Below are positions 49,836 through 54,692 of a DNA stretch of 64,000 bases, in pieces (position 1 is the first letter of the stretch; every line of letters starts with the position of its first letter). The notes beneath the pieces were generated by a model. That model was not told the origin of the DNA and did not search any database. It worked only from the letters and a program-made list of their open reading frames with translations. Origin of the DNA: an uncultured Methylomirabilota bacterium (GTDB taxonomy: Bacteria; Methylomirabilota; Methylomirabilia; Methylomirabilales; 2-02-FULL-66-22); NCBI GenBank assembly GCA_963705305.1, contig OY970067.1, forward strand, positions 4,544,001 through 4,608,000, written 5' to 3'. A program made the position numbers and the translations under genes.

Positions 49836-51320
49836 TCATTCGCCGGTTGATTCCGGTGACTCCCGCTCCCGGGAATCAAGGAGGAGCGTCTTCCGCTGTG
49901 CAAACGCCCCGGGATCCCGGGGCGTGACGTCACCCCACGCCCCGCGGCCCTGCCCGGTCGCCGAAGCCGGTCCTCGCTCCTCCTCGGATGTCGTGGGGCG
50001 ATTCAGGCAGACCACACCGGCCGCCAGCCGGTCTGCAACGCGAAGGCCCTTCTGCAGATCGCGGGTATAGATGGCCACACAAGAATCGGTCCGCGTTCGG
50101 TTGGCGAGATCGACGGCCTCCTCCGGGGAGCCCACCGCCGCGACAGCGGCCAGCGGTCCAGGGACGTCTTCCTGCGCAAGGCGCATCTTCGCCTGTACAT
50201 CCAAGAAGAGTGTGGCGGGATAGTAGAAGCCTTTGCGATACTCCCCTTCCCGCAGGACCTCCCCCCCGCACACTACCCTGGCGCCTTCCTTCAGCGCCAG
50301 CCGCGTGGATGCGTGCACCCGCTTCACCTGCGCCTCGTTGATCAGCGGGCCGACGCTCGTGTCCGCGAGCGCACCGTCACCGCAACGCAGCGCTTGGGCT
50401 TCCTTGGCCAGTCTCTCTACAAACTCCTTTGCCACCTTGCGATGCACCAGTAGGCGAGAGGACGAGGCGGCGCACTGGCCGGAGGTTCTGAAGGCGCTGC
50501 GGATGGCCCCCATCACGGCCGCCTCCACATCCGCGTCCTCCAGAACCAGAAAGGCGTTCTTGCCTCCCACCGCCAACAGCAGCCGCTTTTGTTCCGCCGC
50601 ACACGCGATGGCCACCTCGCGCCCGACCTCCGCAGATCCGACGAAAGAGACGAGAGAGACCTCGGGATGGCGCACGAGGGGCGCCCCTGCCTCTTCCCCA
50701 ACTCCATGGACGAGCTGGAGAACCGCCGCAGGCAGACCGGCCTCGAGAAAGAGCTCCACCGCGCGCGCGGCCACCATCGGACTATCCTTGGCCGGCTTGA
50801 ATACCACGGTATTCCCGACGACCAGGGCCGAGGCGATGGTGGCGATCGGGATTGCCATGGGCCGAACCCAAGGGGTGATGACGGCGACCACTCCCCGGGC
50901 CACCTGAAGATTGAGCCGCAGACCGCCCGTCGAGTCCAAGGTGGTCGCTTCGCCCGCGAGGTGCTGTCCTAGGACGCCCAGGGAGTTGAGGACACCGACT
51001 GCCTCCTGGACCTCCTCCATCGCTTCCGCGAGAATCTTCCCCGTCTCTCGTGTGATCAGCCGCGCGGTCTCCTCGCACCGCCCCCCCAGGAGCGCCGCAG
51101 CGCGAAACAGGATATCCGCCCGACGAAAGGGCGGGGTCAGTCGCCACGCCGGGAAATTCGCCCTGGCCGCCTCCGCGGCCCTGTCCACGTCCCGATGGTC
51201 CGAACGCGGGAAGCTGCCCAGGATGTCGGTCTTGTTGGCCGGGCTCAAATCGTCGTAGGTCGCACCGCTCGCCGATGCCACCCACTTCCCGTTTATGAAA
51301 TTTTCCGTGGGCTCAGCCAT
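49836..51320 (-). CDS. Aldehyde dehydrogenase-fold protein with degenerate catalytic motifs
   Basis: NFINGKW, ETGK, GNTVVFKPA, GGKNA and GPLIN are present, but PWVRP, LAVGGK, GQCAAS and EDVPGP replace the canonical motifs. Confidence 0.88.
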   Translation of the reverse strand: MAEPTENFINGKWVASASGATYDDLSPANKTDILGSFPRSDHRDVDRAAEAARANFPAWRLTPPFRRADILFRAAALLGGRCEETARLITRETGKILAEAMEEVQEAVGVLNSLGVLGQHLAGEATTLDSTGGLRLNLQVARGVVAVITPWVRPMAIPIATIASALVVGNTVVFKPAKDSPMVAARAVELFLEAGLPAAVLQLVHGVGEEAGAPLVRHPEVSLVSFVGSAEVGREVAIACAAEQKRLLLAVGGKNAFLVLEDADVEAAVMGAIRSAFRTSGQCAASSSRLLVHRKVAKEFVERLAKEAQALRCGDGALADTSVGPLINEAQVKRVHASTRLALKEGARVVCGGEVLREGEYRKGFYYPATLFLDVQAKMRLAQEDVPGPLAAVAAVGSPEEAVDLANRTRTDSCVAIYTRDLQKGLRVADRLAAGVVCLNRPTTSEEERGPASATGQGRGAWGDVTPRDPGAFAQRKTLLLDSRERESPESTGE

Positions 51321-51743
51321 CTTTCTTCCGTTCCCCTAAAGACGAAGATCGGCCGGGGAGGGGATCTCCACAATACTCTGGTTCCCACGACGGGAAGCAT
51401 CTCAGCCCCGGTGACACCCGCCGCCCGTCCTTCGGGGGCCACGCTCGGTGAAAAGGAGGGACCCATGGGGAGGCTCCCATGGGCGGTATCGATGAAGGTG
51501 AATCCCGAAGAATCTTTCGAGGGGGAGAATACCACAGCGCTGGACACAGTCGCAATGACGAAGCATGCAACCTGCGAACCAAACTGGACTACAAAAACAT
51601 GTCAAAATACTTTATATTTTCTCTCCAATCCTCATTGAAAACGAGTAAAACAAATTATACATTCTTTCCTTGACGACTCCGATTCATATGAATAATATGA
51701 GTGCCGCTGGGGGGTGCCGCCCCCAGCGTTCAACTGTCCGTAC

Positions 51744-51797
51744 TTACTTCTTTTTCTTCGGAGCAGCCTTCTTAGCGGGCTTCTTCTTCGTCGCCAC
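51744..51797 (-). CDS. Lys-rich micropeptide MATKKKPAKKAAPKKKK (17 aa)
   Basis: GTG start preceded by AAGGGAGGTGA; TAA stop; not in the ORF track. Confidence 0.65.
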   Translation of the reverse strand: MATKKKPAKKAAPKKKK

Positions 51798-51855
51798 TAG
51801 AATCACCTCCCTTCTTGTGGCTGTCTACGTTCCACCATACCACCCGGTGATTAGC

Positions 51856-51906
51856 CTACTTCTTCTTTTTCGTGGCTGTCTTCTTCGACCCCTTTTTCTT
51901 CGTCAT
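51856..51906 (-). CDS. Lys-rich micropeptide MTKKKGSKKTATKKKK (16 aa)
   Basis: ATG preceded by AAGGAGGTGA at 8-nt spacing; TAG stop; not in the ORF track. Confidence 0.65.
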   Translation of the reverse strand: MTKKKGSKKTATKKKK

Positions 51907-51945
51907 CGGGCGGGTCACCTCCTTGTGATCAGTCTCCCAGAGATA

Positions 51946-52392
51946 TCAGGCGAGCAGCGTCATCTGAGGGTTCTTCGCCCGGGTAGCCTCCAACGTGCAT
52001 TCGATGAACCGCTGCGCATCCTTGATCGCGCCCTCCACCTCATAGCGGGAGATAGGTTGACCGGGCTCCTCGAGAATTGTCTGCCACCGGCGCCGCATTC
52101 GATCAAATGCATTGATGAGTGTTCGCCTGTCCGGCCCCAGGATGGCGGCGGTCAACTCCACAACCGTCCGCTGTTGATCCCGCCCCCTGGGACGCAACCC
52201 CTCAACCATGATCACCGCGCGCGCCGCCCGTAACATACCCTGATAGGCAATGGCATACGCCCACTCGCGGTCAATACTGGCATTGGCCCGCGCTGTGGCC
52301 AAGTCCTTCGATGCGCGGGCGACGAGCGCATTGACCACCGCAAAATCGGGTTTGAACGTCCTCCACCAGCCCTTTCTCGCGCAGGTTCTCAT
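51946..52392 (-). CDS. HEPN-domain protein, apparently inactive
   Basis: ASKDLATA..., WAYAIAYQGMLRAARA, FDRMRRR; ATGA overlap with the upstream MNT gene. Confidence 0.78.
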   Translation of the reverse strand: MRTCARKGWWRTFKPDFAVVNALVARASKDLATARANASIDREWAYAIAYQGMLRAARAVIMVEGLRPRGRDQQRTVVELTAAILGPDRRTLINAFDRMRRRWQTILEEPGQPISRYEVEGAIKDAQRFIECTLEATRAKNPQMTLLA

Positions 52393-52958
52393 ACGCCATC
52401 GTCTCGTCCGATGAGCAGGACGTTCCTGTCGCCCAGGATCTCGGTCAAGAATGGATCCGCCTCTGCCCGTCGTCGATGAAAATCCCCCTCGTCGAAGACG
52501 GTGTAATTGATCTCGCGTCCCAGCTTGGCTTCCAAGCGGGTCACCGCCTCGTTCAATTCCGTCAGGTCCACACCACCCACAACCAAGAGCAAGATAGGGC
52601 CTGGACCCTCCCCGGCGGGATGGGCGTTGGTCGTGTAGAGCCACGCCTGCTGTATGCCCGCCAGCGACTTCAGGGCCTCGGCGATCGCGCCCTGCGCCCC
52701 AACCGTTTTGGCAATGATGGACTTGACCTCGGAATAGATCGCAGCAGTCTTGTTGACAGTGTAATAGCGGAGATTCCCGACCTTCTCGCTGGCGAGCAGT
52801 GTAGCCTTCTCCAGATTGTCCAGTTCCCGTTTGATACCTGAGATGTCGCGGCGGAGATCCCGAGCGATCTGCCTCACGTAGAAGCGATGCTCTGGGTGCG
52901 TGAAAAGGAGTCGCAAGATATCGACCCTGGTCTTTGATGAGAACAACCTTTCGAGCAT
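52389..52958 (-). CDS. Winged-HTH plus degenerate minimal nucleotidyltransferase (MNT) protein
   Basis: LFSSKTR..FYVRQIAR..RELDNL..GNLRYY (wHTH); C-terminal half ends LGREINYTVF...DPFL as in HTH-MNT antitoxins. Confidence 0.82.
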   Translation of the reverse strand: MLERLFSSKTRVDILRLLFTHPEHRFYVRQIARDLRRDISGIKRELDNLEKATLLASEKVGNLRYYTVNKTAAIYSEVKSIIAKTVGAQGAIAEALKSLAGIQQAWLYTTNAHPAGEGPGPILLLVVGGVDLTELNEAVTRLEAKLGREINYTVFDEGDFHRRRAEADPFLTEILGDRNVLLIGRDDGV

Positions 52959-52980
52959 TATTCGTCACCATTCGTTGAGC

Positions 52981-53010
52981 TTTATACATCGACCGTTCTT
53001 CACTTGTCAA
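52981..53010 (-). promoter_or_regulatory. sigma70-type promoter with AT-rich UP element for the MNT-HEPN-peptide unit
   Basis: TTGACA-N18-TATAAA with A/T tracts immediately upstream. Confidence 0.6.
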
Positions 53011-53453
53011 CAAAATTTTTTTGAAAAATTCACAAGCGGCTTCGGTAATCGGTATCCACACCCCCCCTTAACCGAATATACTCAATCCTGGAGAGAGTTA
53101 ACAAAGAAAGCGGGGCTTCATTGCAAACCGGACACCTTGTACGTTCCTGCTTTCTCAGGTCTGTTCCGATGAAAAATCCTCTCTACTTAGCTGTATTCTT
53201 AGGATAGAAAGTGATCGGAGAACAAAAGAGAACAGGAACAGTCTCACCTCTCATGCGGGCCGGAAAATCCAAATTCGCGAGTGCGGGGACAGAACCGTCA
53301 CAGCTCGGTCCAGCCCCGCGACAAACCCGGAGTTTGAGAATAGCGAATCCCGCATCTTGCAGATGGTCCCTCTCGCCCAAACTCCGGGGACATGGGTCAG
53401 GGGAGGCTAGCGATTTGACCCGCCGATCAATTCACCATTATACGACCGGTCCC

Positions 53454-53951
53454 GTGATCGTGCCCGGGCGACTGCGCCTGTGGTGGTGGCTGGGATTCCT
53501 CGCTCGTGCGGCGATGCTCGCCCTCCTCCTCGGCGCACCGGGTGCCAGCCCCGTGCGCGCTTCCCAGCCCCCTGATCTCCGGACCGTCTTCGCCGCCGCG
53601 CTGAATGCCTGGACCTACGGGGCGTACTGGCGCCTCTGGGGCATGGGAACCCGCGAAAGCCGGGAAGCTCTCAGCCAGGACGAGTTCGCGCGTCGGATGG
53701 ACGCCGGGAACGCAGCGCCTGTAGCCGACATGCCTGTGCAGGCGTTCCAAGTGATCTCAATGTCCGGGGATGTGGCGCTGGTCCGGGTGGGGATCCGCTT
53801 GGAAGACCGTCGGGCCCACCGTAAGGCCGCCACGGCTCGCCCATTTCTGATGCGCTTCGAGGAGGGCGCCTGGAAAGTCAACCTGTGGGACTTCGTCGGG
53901 CTGGCCGCATTCTTCCCTCCCCACTATCTTCCGGGGAGACTGCCCCGGTAG
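53454..53951 (+). CDS. Hypothetical secreted protein (possibly NTF2-like fold); start uncertain
   Basis: Signal-like hydrophobic segment ending VRA; SREALSQDEF...FEEGAWKV pattern. Confidence 0.6.
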   Translation: MIVPGRLRLWWWLGFLARAAMLALLLGAPGASPVRASQPPDLRTVFAAALNAWTYGAYWRLWGMGTRESREALSQDEFARRMDAGNAAPVADMPVQAFQVISMSGDVALVRVGIRLEDRRAHRKAATARPFLMRFEEGAWKVNLWDFVGLAAFFPPHYLPGRLPR

Positions 53952-54034
53952 GGCCTCCGGGCCGCGTGTCCGAGCGGCTCCTCGCACGCTGCCGGCAGCT
54001 CTGAGGCAAGGAGCGGCGAGCCACACGCCCGGTG

Positions 54035-54077
54035 AAAAAGGAACGGGGCCGCGGATGGCGACCCATCCCGGCCCCGT
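54035..54077 (-). terminator. Intrinsic terminator downstream of the ferredoxin gene
   Basis: Arms ACGGGGCCG/CGGCCCCGT with inner GGATGG/CCATCC, followed by TCCTTTTT on the minus strand. Confidence 0.65.
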
Positions 54078-54101
54078 CAGGCCGAAAGCCGATCCGCCGC
54101 G

Positions 54102-54368
54102 CTAGGCGCCGACCGGCTCTTTGTCGGGATGAAGTTTCTTGAACTTCGTCAGCAGCTGGTCCTTGCTCTCCTTCCTGTCGGGATTCGGCTCGATGCTCCC
54201 CGTCGGACACGTAGACACACACTGCGGCTCCGCAAAGTGCCCTACGCATTCAGTGCAGAGGTCGGGATTGATCATATAGTGATCCTCGCCCTCGCTGATC
54301 GCGCCGTTCGGGCATTCCGACTCGCAGGCCCCGCAGCTGCTGCATTCGTCATTGATGAAAAGCGCCAT
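54102..54368 (-). CDS. YfhL-type 2[4Fe-4S] ferredoxin
   Basis: CSSCGACESECP and CTECVGHFAEPQCVSTCP. Confidence 0.95.
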   Translation of the reverse strand: MALFINDECSSCGACESECPNGAISEGEDHYMINPDLCTECVGHFAEPQCVSTCPTGSIEPNPDRKESKDQLLTKFKKLHPDKEPVGA

Positions 54369-54692
54369 GAACTCGCCTCCTTGCGTGACGGTGTAATTGG
54401 GACTCTTGCGACTCTTGTAAAACTATACCCCCGAAGCTTGCCCTCCGAAAAGAAAAAAATGCCCTCTTCGTCGACCGCGCGAAAAGGCGCGCTTTTCCGA
54501 ACAATTCCTGCGGAGCCACGACTGCCGGCAGCCTGCGTCGGCTGCCAAGCGGAAGTCCCCCGCGAACATGCTGCCGACCATATCTACCTTCAGGAGATGC
54601 CGGTCAAACAATACGGAAAGGGCTCTTGCATTCTAGAGGTGATCGTGCGACCTTTACACGCAACCCGTACACGCAACCCGGAGGAAAATGGG

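Follow-up and report, generated by a model that had tools for sequence, protein, structure and literature searches.

The 64,000-nucleotide stretch of contig OY970067.1 analysed here (the window), from an uncultured Methylomirabilota bacterium, carries a pair of genes, A and B, in which both canonical active sites of a toxin-antitoxin (TA)-like module have been lost. Pairs of a minimal nucleotidyltransferase (MNT) and a HEPN protein are among the commonest TA or defence modules. All features of the locus lie on the minus strand within 53040-51700, in the order promoter, gene A, gene B, two lysine-rich micro-open reading frames (K-ORFs) of 16 and 17 amino acids, and a hairpin with a G5/C5 stem. 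We propose, at a probability of roughly one half, that this is a chromosomal, vertically inherited operon in which a doubly inactivated, domesticated TA pair serves as a regulator of the peptides encoded by the K-ORFs (K-peptides) and not as a toxin system. The pair type itself is known, as the PADLOC candidate PDC-M05; what is new is the loss of catalytic residues, the near-core status and the association with K-ORFs. The initial annotation had put the locus forward as a candidate new system; this does not hold for the pair type, whereas we found neither the arrangement nor its peptides described in the titles and opening lines of abstracts of the literature on lysine-rich small proteins, HEPN and Methylomirabilis.

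Predicted folds of the two proteins

Gene A (52389..52958, minus strand) encodes 189 residues, with an ArsR-type winged helix-turn-helix (wHTH) at approximately residues 1-95 and an MNT fold at approximately 96-189, and is matched over residues 4-187 of its 189 by the PADLOC model PDC-M05A (PDLC04368, E 2.4e-41). Its N-terminus resembles wHTH domains of the ArsR/MarR type in Pfam and NCBIfam, below their cut-offs (NF033788, E 9.3e-8), and a Pfam scan of the window protein gave no nucleotidyltransferase match. Gene B (51946..52399, minus strand), whose native start is the ATG at 52399-52397, encodes a HEPN-fold protein that matches PF05168 above its cut-off (E 1.7e-7) as well as PDC-M05B (PDLC04374, E 6.3e-11). 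Profiles of the two proteins were searched against the sequences of solved structures: that of A found only wHTH domains of the ArsR type and no nucleotidyltransferase, and that of B nothing clear, with 2gjv_A alone at E 0.24.

Searches by fold were therefore needed. AlphaFold models of A (from an alignment of 105 sequences) and B (59 sequences, with the intact homologue P0122 first) reached mean confidence (pLDDT) values of 90.4 and 92.7. With Foldseek, the N-terminus of the A model retrieved the ArsR/SmtB repressors HlyU (4k2e_A), CzrA (1r1u_A) and SqrR (6o8k), and its C-terminal half retrieved the MNT antitoxins 8xeo_A, 6m6u_F, 7aer_A and 8xeh_E at E values of 7e-4 to 3e-3. The modelled A thus has both a wHTH fold with a recognition helix, of the ArsR/SmtB type, and an MNT fold. 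The B model retrieved the HEPN proteins 2hsb (TM-score 0.81 by target length), 1ufb and 1wol, and has the four-helix HEPN fold without the Rx4-6H motif, which in this family takes the form R-x-K-R-[H/N]. The domain identities first proposed from the letters alone are therefore borne out by PADLOC, Pfam and Foldseek, and the family matches and predicted folds together mark A and B as descendants of the wHTH-MNT/HEPN TA-like family that PADLOC lists as PDC-M05. A prediction of the complex between residues 96-189 of A and B scored 0.01, which is evidence neither way.

Both active-site motifs are lost from proteins under purifying selection

When 1.84 billion cluster representatives were searched with the profile of A, 6745 proteins matched at E values up to 1e-3, and 251 of these at up to 1e-30. 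The window protein was aligned with 137 full-length representatives. Nearly all of these read FIYGSxAxG...(S)DIDLhhhG, where window A reads YTTNAHPAGEGPGPILL; it and its two closest representatives carry YTTNAHPAGEGPGPILLLVVG or similar, with both GS and DxD gone, and a few other lineages of the family are likewise degenerate. The GS position is occupied by TT in the window and by TT, ST, SM or SA across the clade, and in place of DxD the window has P-I-L. Across 120 members of the clade, the residues at the two former Asp sites vary freely (P, A, S, G and others at one; L, F, P, R and others at the other), and about 6 of the 120 still have DxD. The loss of the GS...DxD signature that the initial annotation had noticed is thus confirmed by comparison with the family.

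The same is true of its companion claim, that the R-x4-6-H/Y motif of the HEPN protein has been lost. Partners of canonical A proteins read either FDRMRRKRHxxxY (FDRMRRKRH) or the FDSCRAKRN type, FDSCRAKRNITDY, for a consensus of FDRMRRKR[H/N]xxxY; the window protein reads FDRMRRRWQTILEE (FDRMRRRWQ), in which Q replaces H/N and E replaces Y. All orthologues of the order that were displayed have Q at the H/N position, save one with H (locus L024). Over 12 loci of the window's clade, at dS > 1, the median ratio of nonsynonymous to synonymous substitution rates (dN/dS) was 0.13 for A and 0.10 for B. The alignments demonstrate the loss of both canonical active sites from proteins that have been retained, and from this we infer that neither A nor B has any activity left.

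The reading frame of B

The pair had been described as coupled by an ATGA junction with both frames open. The genes do overlap: the native B start lies 11 nt inside the end of A. The ATGA of the window, however, is an artefact of one extra base, which also breaks the native B frame. B homologues are all 149-150 amino acids long and begin MAYE(D/N)LREKGLVED; their ATG sits 7 nt upstream of the window's ATGA, within a junction that reads ATGGCGTATGA in the window's own clades, and more distant clades have A/B junctions of ATGA or a similar kind. Read from ATG 52399, window B goes out of frame after codon 14; as assembled, the body of B is in frame only from ATG 52392, and the ORF that begins there is a by-product with a foreign 13-residue N-terminus. 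The difference is an extra T in the TT run at 52355..52356 (minus strand), relative to both the homologues and a metagenome contig: the window reads GAC-GTT-C-AAA-CCC where relatives read GAC-ATC/GTC-AAG/AAA-CCG. Over 52265-52433 the contig (run X1; 168 nt, depth 8.2) differs from the window in one respect, the omission of one base at 52355. Four DNA runs from two studies each contained 8-13% of the sampled words, and their contigs cover the stretch in part. Since the homologues and this near-identical contig lack the extra base, an assembly indel in the single-contig genome is the most likely explanation, and a strain-specific frameshift the other. A programmed frameshift was considered and rejected for the same reason. 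Other genes of the host genome may carry similar homopolymer indels.

A conserved promoter with a symmetric candidate operator

Upstream of A lies the strong promoter first proposed by eye: a -35 hexamer TTGACA (53005..53010, minus strand) with an A-rich tract just upstream (53011-53030), and, after an 18-nt spacer, a -10 hexamer TATAAA (52981..52986, minus strand). The promoter is kept in 34 of 34 related loci; TTGACA is invariant in 35 of 35 with the window counted, and the -10 box varies among TATA[AT]A, TATTTA and TAAA[GT]A with unchanged spacing. A consensus scanner did not call the promoter at 53010-52981, because the last base of its -10 box is A and the scanner's rule demands T there.

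Across the -10 box runs an inverted repeat, TCGATG-N9-CAACGA (52972..52992, minus strand), a candidate operator for the wHTH protein. Its arms are complementary at 5 or 6 of the 6 positions in 23 of 35 loci, and three distinct perfect palindromes occur among them (TCGTTG/CAACGA, TTGTTG/CAACAA and TTGATG/CATCAA), with changes between clades that are symmetric on both arms. A symmetric palindrome in this position fits a dimeric repressor site for autoregulation, and the protein presumed to bind it is A. A degenerate version of the pattern matched three times in the host genome, against none for the reversed control; of these, one is the locus's own promoter, another falls inside a gene and the last has a core rich in GC, and no regulon was apparent from them.

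The pair is a near-core, vertically inherited locus

A search with one genome per species gave 34 related loci, nearly all labelled Methylomirabilota/NC10, with A proteins 47-80% identical. B is the next gene after A in all 34, and in each of the 31 with at least 400 nt beyond B there follow 1-4 K-rich ORFs and then a hairpin; the other three end 39-166 nt past B. The order was sampled with 53 genomes, not counting the window's own, and 45 of them have an A orthologue, distributed over families f1 to f7 as 12/14, 13/18, 15/15, 1/1, 3/3, 1/2 and 0/1; the genomes of the order without a match are 70-93% complete. Outside the order, family f9 gave 3 matches in 126 genomes, all weak (near 1e-31). 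The phylum sample comprised 201 genomes, and the tallies of A take in three unpublished ones (G152, G047 and G058).

As A is single-copy in the host genome, present in 45/53 of the order and set in a stable neighbourhood, inheritance of the A/B locus is vertical and near-core, not that of a mobile island; the pair does not show the patchy, multi-copy distribution of mobile type II TA systems. Two of the checks originally suggested for the locus, a neighbourhood survey and dN/dS, gave an arrangement conserved in 31/31 loci and ratios that indicate purifying selection. The lower-GC island into which the genes had been placed has lowered GC content (0.47-0.61, against 0.66 for the 5.65-Mb single-contig genome), owing to AT-rich intergenic DNA and lysine codons, but it is not foreign: horizontal acquisition was rejected in view of the vertical inheritance.

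Lysine-rich micro-ORFs follow the pair throughout the order

Two K-rich peptides had been noted downstream of B, and each proves to stand behind a near-perfect Shine-Dalgarno (SD) sequence, with 9-10 bases complementary to the 3' end of 16S rRNA. The extended SD of K-ORF 1, AAGGAGGTGA (51914..51923, minus strand), begins 22 nt past the B stop and precedes an ATG-initiated ORF of 16 amino acids, MTKKKGSKKTATKKKK, that ends in TAG (51856..51906, minus strand). K-ORF 2, (GTG)MATKKKPAKKAAPKKKK, has 17 amino acids and a TAA stop (51744..51797, minus strand) and lies behind the SD GGGAGGTGA (51803..51811, minus strand). These are the only SD-preceded ORFs of 8-50 amino acids with at least 40% lysine in the entire 5.65-Mb genome.

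We tabulated 71 K-rich ORFs from the 34 related loci (L001-L034), three Nitrospirota loci described below and the window, one of them an upstream-start call of a neighbour. They are 12-29 amino acids long and consist of 55% Lys and 27% Ala, the remainder being mainly T, P, G and R, and all four Ala codons are used. Start codons are ATG (50), GTG (17) and TTG (4), and in 68 of the 71 the SD and the start codon are 6-9 nt apart. When 47 purine-rich tracts were located without calling ORFs, an upstream start was present in the lysine frame of 40, compared with 9 of 47 in each other frame, and a stop lay within 3 nt in the lysine frame of 33, compared with 2 and 1 in the others. By these signs the K-rich ORFs look translated.

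Two further features of the set can be recorded. Stop codons are TAG (42) or TAA (29) and never TGA among the 71, in GC-rich genomes where TGA would be expected to be common; the cause may lie in the purine-rich surroundings or in a bias towards one release factor. In one clade (L012, L015, L016 and L017) the first K-ORF is 23-29 amino acids long and ends G-K/R-G-C (for example ...KKAGKKGGRGC), with a conserved C-terminal Cys that is absent from other K-ORFs.

An independent association in Nitrospirota

The same combination recurs in another phylum. Using an alignment of canonical-type A proteins (a narrow one of 8 sequences), 80 metagenome loci were fetched, and in 50 of them a B-like ORF was followed by 300 nt or more of sequence. 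K-rich ORFs occurred in 3 of the 50, the near-identical L100 and L105 together with L112, and in none of the other 47; these three are exactly the loci in which A reads SNINL in place of SDIDL, and their B proteins read FDRMRRK[YH]Q. In these loci the K-ORFs, such as MPAKKKAAKKKAKKKAKKK, come after GAAAGGGGGTG and are followed by a G5/C5 hairpin, CGCCGGGGG/CCCCCGGCG. The flanking genes differ from the window's order and include an FtsB-like ORF downstream. Among 120 listed clusters of relatives of this NxN form of A, the few that are named are Nitrospirota; the second Asp is Asn in all 120, the first in 111, and none has DxD. Because L100, L105 and L112 share an NxN A, a Q-type B and K-ORFs, loss of the Asp pair, replacement of H by Q in B and the presence of K-rich ORFs go together in two phyla.

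Proposed mechanism and the evidence that weighs against it

In the model we favour, a dimer of A would bind the -10 palindrome through its wHTH domains and repress its own promoter, with B held on the nucleotidyltransferase-fold domain of A as in MntA-HepT. The K-ORFs would be transcribed from the A/B promoter and translated far more strongly than A, given their perfect extended SD sequences and the weak GGTGA of A. The pair would thereby set the dose of polylysine/alanine peptides of 12-29 amino acids, with a charge of about +8 to +10 in the window, which probably bind nucleic acids or ribosomes as polycations. For the suggestion, already made from the sequence, of a dead TA module turned regulator, the loss of residues, purifying selection, single-copy near-core status, the conserved company of K-ORFs and the symmetric candidate operator all speak in favour; non-catalytic toxicity of B is possible, however, and the K-ORFs do not depend on the pair.

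A number of observations count against this model, some of them concerning B. Its Arg cluster, D97-R98-M99-R100-R101-R102, is invariant in the close alignment, and one B subclade has a His one residue past the Q, although this His is not conserved; because of these two features an altered RNase or RNA-binding activity of B is possible. The assembled window, moreover, has a frameshifted B. An unrelated representative of PDC-M05 partly protected E. coli B against phage (bioRxiv 10.1101/2024.09.26.614923), so that a defence role for the family is possible. Others concern the link to the K-ORFs. We infer co-transcription only from the 22-nt gap between the B stop and the first SD and from the lack of a visible promoter there, and the linkage could in part be conserved synteny, as genes resembling those for aldehyde dehydrogenase (ALDH), LptC and LptA are also kept downstream.

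A further point is that K-ORFs occur without the pair. A search of the phylum with the pattern GGTG-N4-10-DTG-N12-42-AARAARAARTAR found them in 177 of 201 genomes (counts that include the unpublished G152, G047, G101, G029 and G058), with mostly 0 for a reversed-pattern control. Among these are 123 of 126 genomes of f9 and 16 of 16 of f10, families in which the search for A gave three weak matches or none, and since the K-ORFs are present there without an A orthologue they do not depend on A/B. In f9 and f10 a single K-ORF can come with a TTGACA-N17-TAGCAT promoter and a terminator of its own.

In the 16 neighbourhoods of f9 and f10 that were fetched, K-ORFs occur in three arrangements. At least 7 of 10 tandem loci have them directly behind a 349-amino-acid protein that combines a wHTH with an AbiEi_2 domain, the C-terminus of which matches PF09952 above its cut-off (E 1e-5 to 1e-6); in the sister order this is seen in L116, L118-L120, L122, L123 and L125, with tandem K-ORFs such as MAKKKAAKKKKK and MKKKATKKKKKK. 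No toxin partner was seen among the ORFs read beside the 349-residue protein. A possible kinship between A and this protein was rejected, the hhalign match being limited to the wHTH region and not significant (E 0.052). Two G/C-rich hairpins come next in these tandem loci, and then a short convergent gene that we take to encode an L28-like ribosomal protein and a gene that reads like a RecG-like helicase. The stand-alone K-ORF of L128 and L130, with its own promoter and hairpin terminator, adjoins a large gene, and a further gene lies near the stand-alone K-ORF region of L127; from their translations we take these to be radical-SAM-like and NrdR-like, respectively. In the third arrangement a variant, MAKGTGMKKEKKKPKKKK (L129:3083-3139), which recurs in several genomes, ends approximately 7 nt before a gene for an ABC-F-like ATPase and could be a stalling leader peptide for this ribosome-rescue ATPase.

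By their distribution, then, the K-peptides are older and more widespread than the A/B pair. At least two antitoxin-like wHTH proteins stand before K-ORFs, and the A/B pair supplies one of them. This leads to a broader and more tentative proposal: that the polylysine/alanine micropeptides of 12-29 amino acids form an unannotated family extending throughout Methylomirabilota and also into a Nitrospirota lineage, that their dose is set by TA-derived factors (in one order the catalytically dead pair, in another the AbiEi-like wHTH protein, beside which no toxin partner was seen), and that as polycationic effectors they would bind ribosomes or the nucleoid.

Alternative explanations

We think it unlikely that A and B form a working PDC-M05-type TA or abortive-infection module in which B is a toxin that acts by binding RNA or through an altered active site, A serves as antitoxin and repressor, and the K-ORFs are bystanders. 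Both proteins match the PADLOC PDC-M05 models, B retains its invariant Arg cluster, HEPN proteins without the motif can stay toxic, as Anantharaman et al. 2013 note (PMC3710099), and the preprint cited above has a family member that is phage-protective in E. coli B (bioRxiv 10.1101/2024.09.26.614923). However, a single-copy gene present in 45/53 of an order within a stable neighbourhood is unlike mobile defence genes, and A is without any nucleotidyltransferase catalytic residue, so that neutralisation by AMPylation as known for MntA cannot work. Among the metagenome loci, furthermore, K-ORFs track the degenerate clades exactly, in 3/3 with NxN and 0/47 without. Less probable again is a layered control of toxic or dose-sensitive K-peptides, in which A/B would repress transcription and, as in type I TA systems, an antisense RNA running convergently from the hairpin would pair with the K-ORF mRNA. 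It would account for the K-ORFs lying behind antitoxin-like wHTH proteins in all three lineages and for a plus-strand TTGACG-17-TAATAT site that the window shares with 7 of its 10 closest loci. That site, however, was not found in the order's other clades, the stand-alone K-ORFs of the sister order have an ordinary promoter, and type I toxins are hydrophobic membrane peptides, which the K-peptides are not.

It is also doubtful, and more so, that the K-ORFs are lysine-sensing leader peptides and the hairpin a regulated terminator for the ALDH-like, lptC-like and lptA-like genes, with A/B as unrelated neighbours. Runs of Lys codons followed by a hairpin do recall such attenuators, and one type of sister-order K-ORF lies just before the ABC-F-like ATPase gene. 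An attenuator, however, would have its ORF over mutually exclusive hairpins and a terminator with a U-tract, and at the window locus no alternative hairpin overlapping the ORF was seen, the hairpin stands 16 nt past the stop and there is no U-tract. Nor would one expect 1-4 tandem K-ORFs, each with its own perfect SD, stand-alone K-ORFs with their own promoter and terminator, or a downstream gene that varies from ALDH-like or lptC-like in the order to an FtsB-like ORF in Nitrospirota and a convergent gene in f9. The least probable explanation, in our estimation, is that the purine-rich repeats act as RNA, as a decoy for the 30S subunit or a ligand of the non-catalytic HEPN protein, like the repeats of type III TA systems. 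The units are repeated 1-4 times, each carries a stretch complementary to the 3' end of 16S rRNA, the conserved G5/C5 hairpin lacks a U-tract, and motif-less HEPN domains are thought to bind RNA (PMC3710099). Against this, starts and stops occur specifically in the lysine frame, the Ala codons vary synonymously, the SD-to-start spacing is held at 6-9 nt in 68/71 ORFs, and there is no Rfam match.

Relationship to known systems

The A/B pair shares with PDC-M05, a phage defence candidate of PADLOC-DB v2, the arrangement of an ArsR-like wHTH joined to a nucleotidyltransferase of the KNTase/MNT-like kind, with a HEPN gene that follows and overlaps. Canonical PDC-M05 members differ in keeping GS, DxD and R-x-K-R-[H/N]-x3-Y, all lost by the window's clade, and in lacking K-ORFs (0/47 canonical-type metagenome loci), whereas the window's clade has a near-core chromosomal pair with K-ORFs throughout. 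A NAR 2026 paper (PMC12988326) describes PDC-M05 as an archaea-enriched candidate system of a nucleotidyltransferase and a HEPN protein with an antiviral role that is unconfirmed.

With MntA-HepT, a TA system of type II/VII, the pair has in common the MNT fold, in the C-terminal half of A, the HEPN fold of B, and adjoining, overlapping genes; it differs in the absence of the transferase residues and of the H, in the extra wHTH on A, and in being vertically inherited and not mobile. In that system MntA AMPylates HepT, an RNase with an Rx4-6H motif; Shewanella SO_3165/SO_3166 (PDB 5yep, 7aer and 6m6u) is an example. The sister-order K-ORFs likewise lie behind an antitoxin-like transcription factor, the AbiEi-type wHTH protein (PF09952, AbiEi_2), which belongs to a protein family different from that of A and has no counterpart at the window locus.

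Very small basic proteins are known as bS22, bL37 and Thx in bacteria and eL41 in eukaryotes and archaea, and histone H1 tails and protamines are basic as well. Compared by description only, the K-peptides are like small ribosome- or nucleoid-associated proteins in being tiny, extremely basic, apparently strongly translated and phylum-wide, and unlike bS22, bL37, Thx, eL41, H1 tails and protamines in consisting almost only of Lys and Ala.

Defence-finding pipelines, PADLOC among them, will register such a locus as candidate defence, where the evidence points to a housekeeping regulator made of two pseudoenzymes. It is therefore a caution for censuses of defence systems and would be an example of the joint domestication of toxin and antitoxin, in which, if the broader proposal above is correct, a whole TA module, toxin included, now serves a polycationic effector as its pseudoenzyme regulator or chaperone. 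The K-ORFs are too short for gene callers and, if translated, would rank with the shortest and most basic proteins conserved in bacteria, which makes the K-peptides a target for peptide detection and for structural work on ribosomes or nucleoids in methane-oxidising NC10 enrichment cultures.

The 3' end of the operon and the DNA beyond

The hairpin of the window, GCTGGGGG-CGGCA-CCCCCCAGC (51706..51727, minus strand), starts 16 nt after the stop of K-ORF 2. A pattern search matched it in the window and in all but one of the 31 related loci with enough sequence (30 of 31), and in the remaining locus (L015) the hairpin is visible by eye. No U-tract follows it and a terminator caller did not call it; it is probably the 3' end or a stabiliser of the operon transcript. 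A search of 50500-54500 against Rfam at E values up to 1 gave no match.

Just beyond the hairpin is the promoter-like TTGACG-17-TAATAT (51670..51698, plus strand; 9 of 12 consensus matches), which points into the K-ORFs and, where it recurs among the closest loci, has a spacer of variable sequence. It provides a lead to a predicted antisense RNA running from the hairpin through the K-ORFs. As an order-wide feature it was rejected, being confined to the window and those 7 of 10 loci.

Between the hairpin and an aldehyde-dehydrogenase-like gene lies an AT-rich spacer of approximately 380 nt (51320-51700; GC content about 0.49-0.51), which has no Rfam match; within it is a conserved TCGTCAAG box, whose opposite strand reads TTGACGA. 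Of the 34 related loci, 15, 18 and 9 respectively also carry the downstream ALDH-like, LptC-like and LptA-like genes, which are named from their translations. A second conserved element, absent from the window's own clade, is found approximately 20-110 nt past the hairpin in ten of the loci (L019-L022, L024, L025, L027, L028, L033 and L034). It consists of GAAGGAGGT and then an ATC/ATT codon that opens a frame of 10-17 codons ending ...GG(A/G) or GAA, TGA, after which comes GGG(C/T)(G/A)G...CCCTGA. An RNA leader and a micro-ORF with a non-AUG start are both possible readings of this element.

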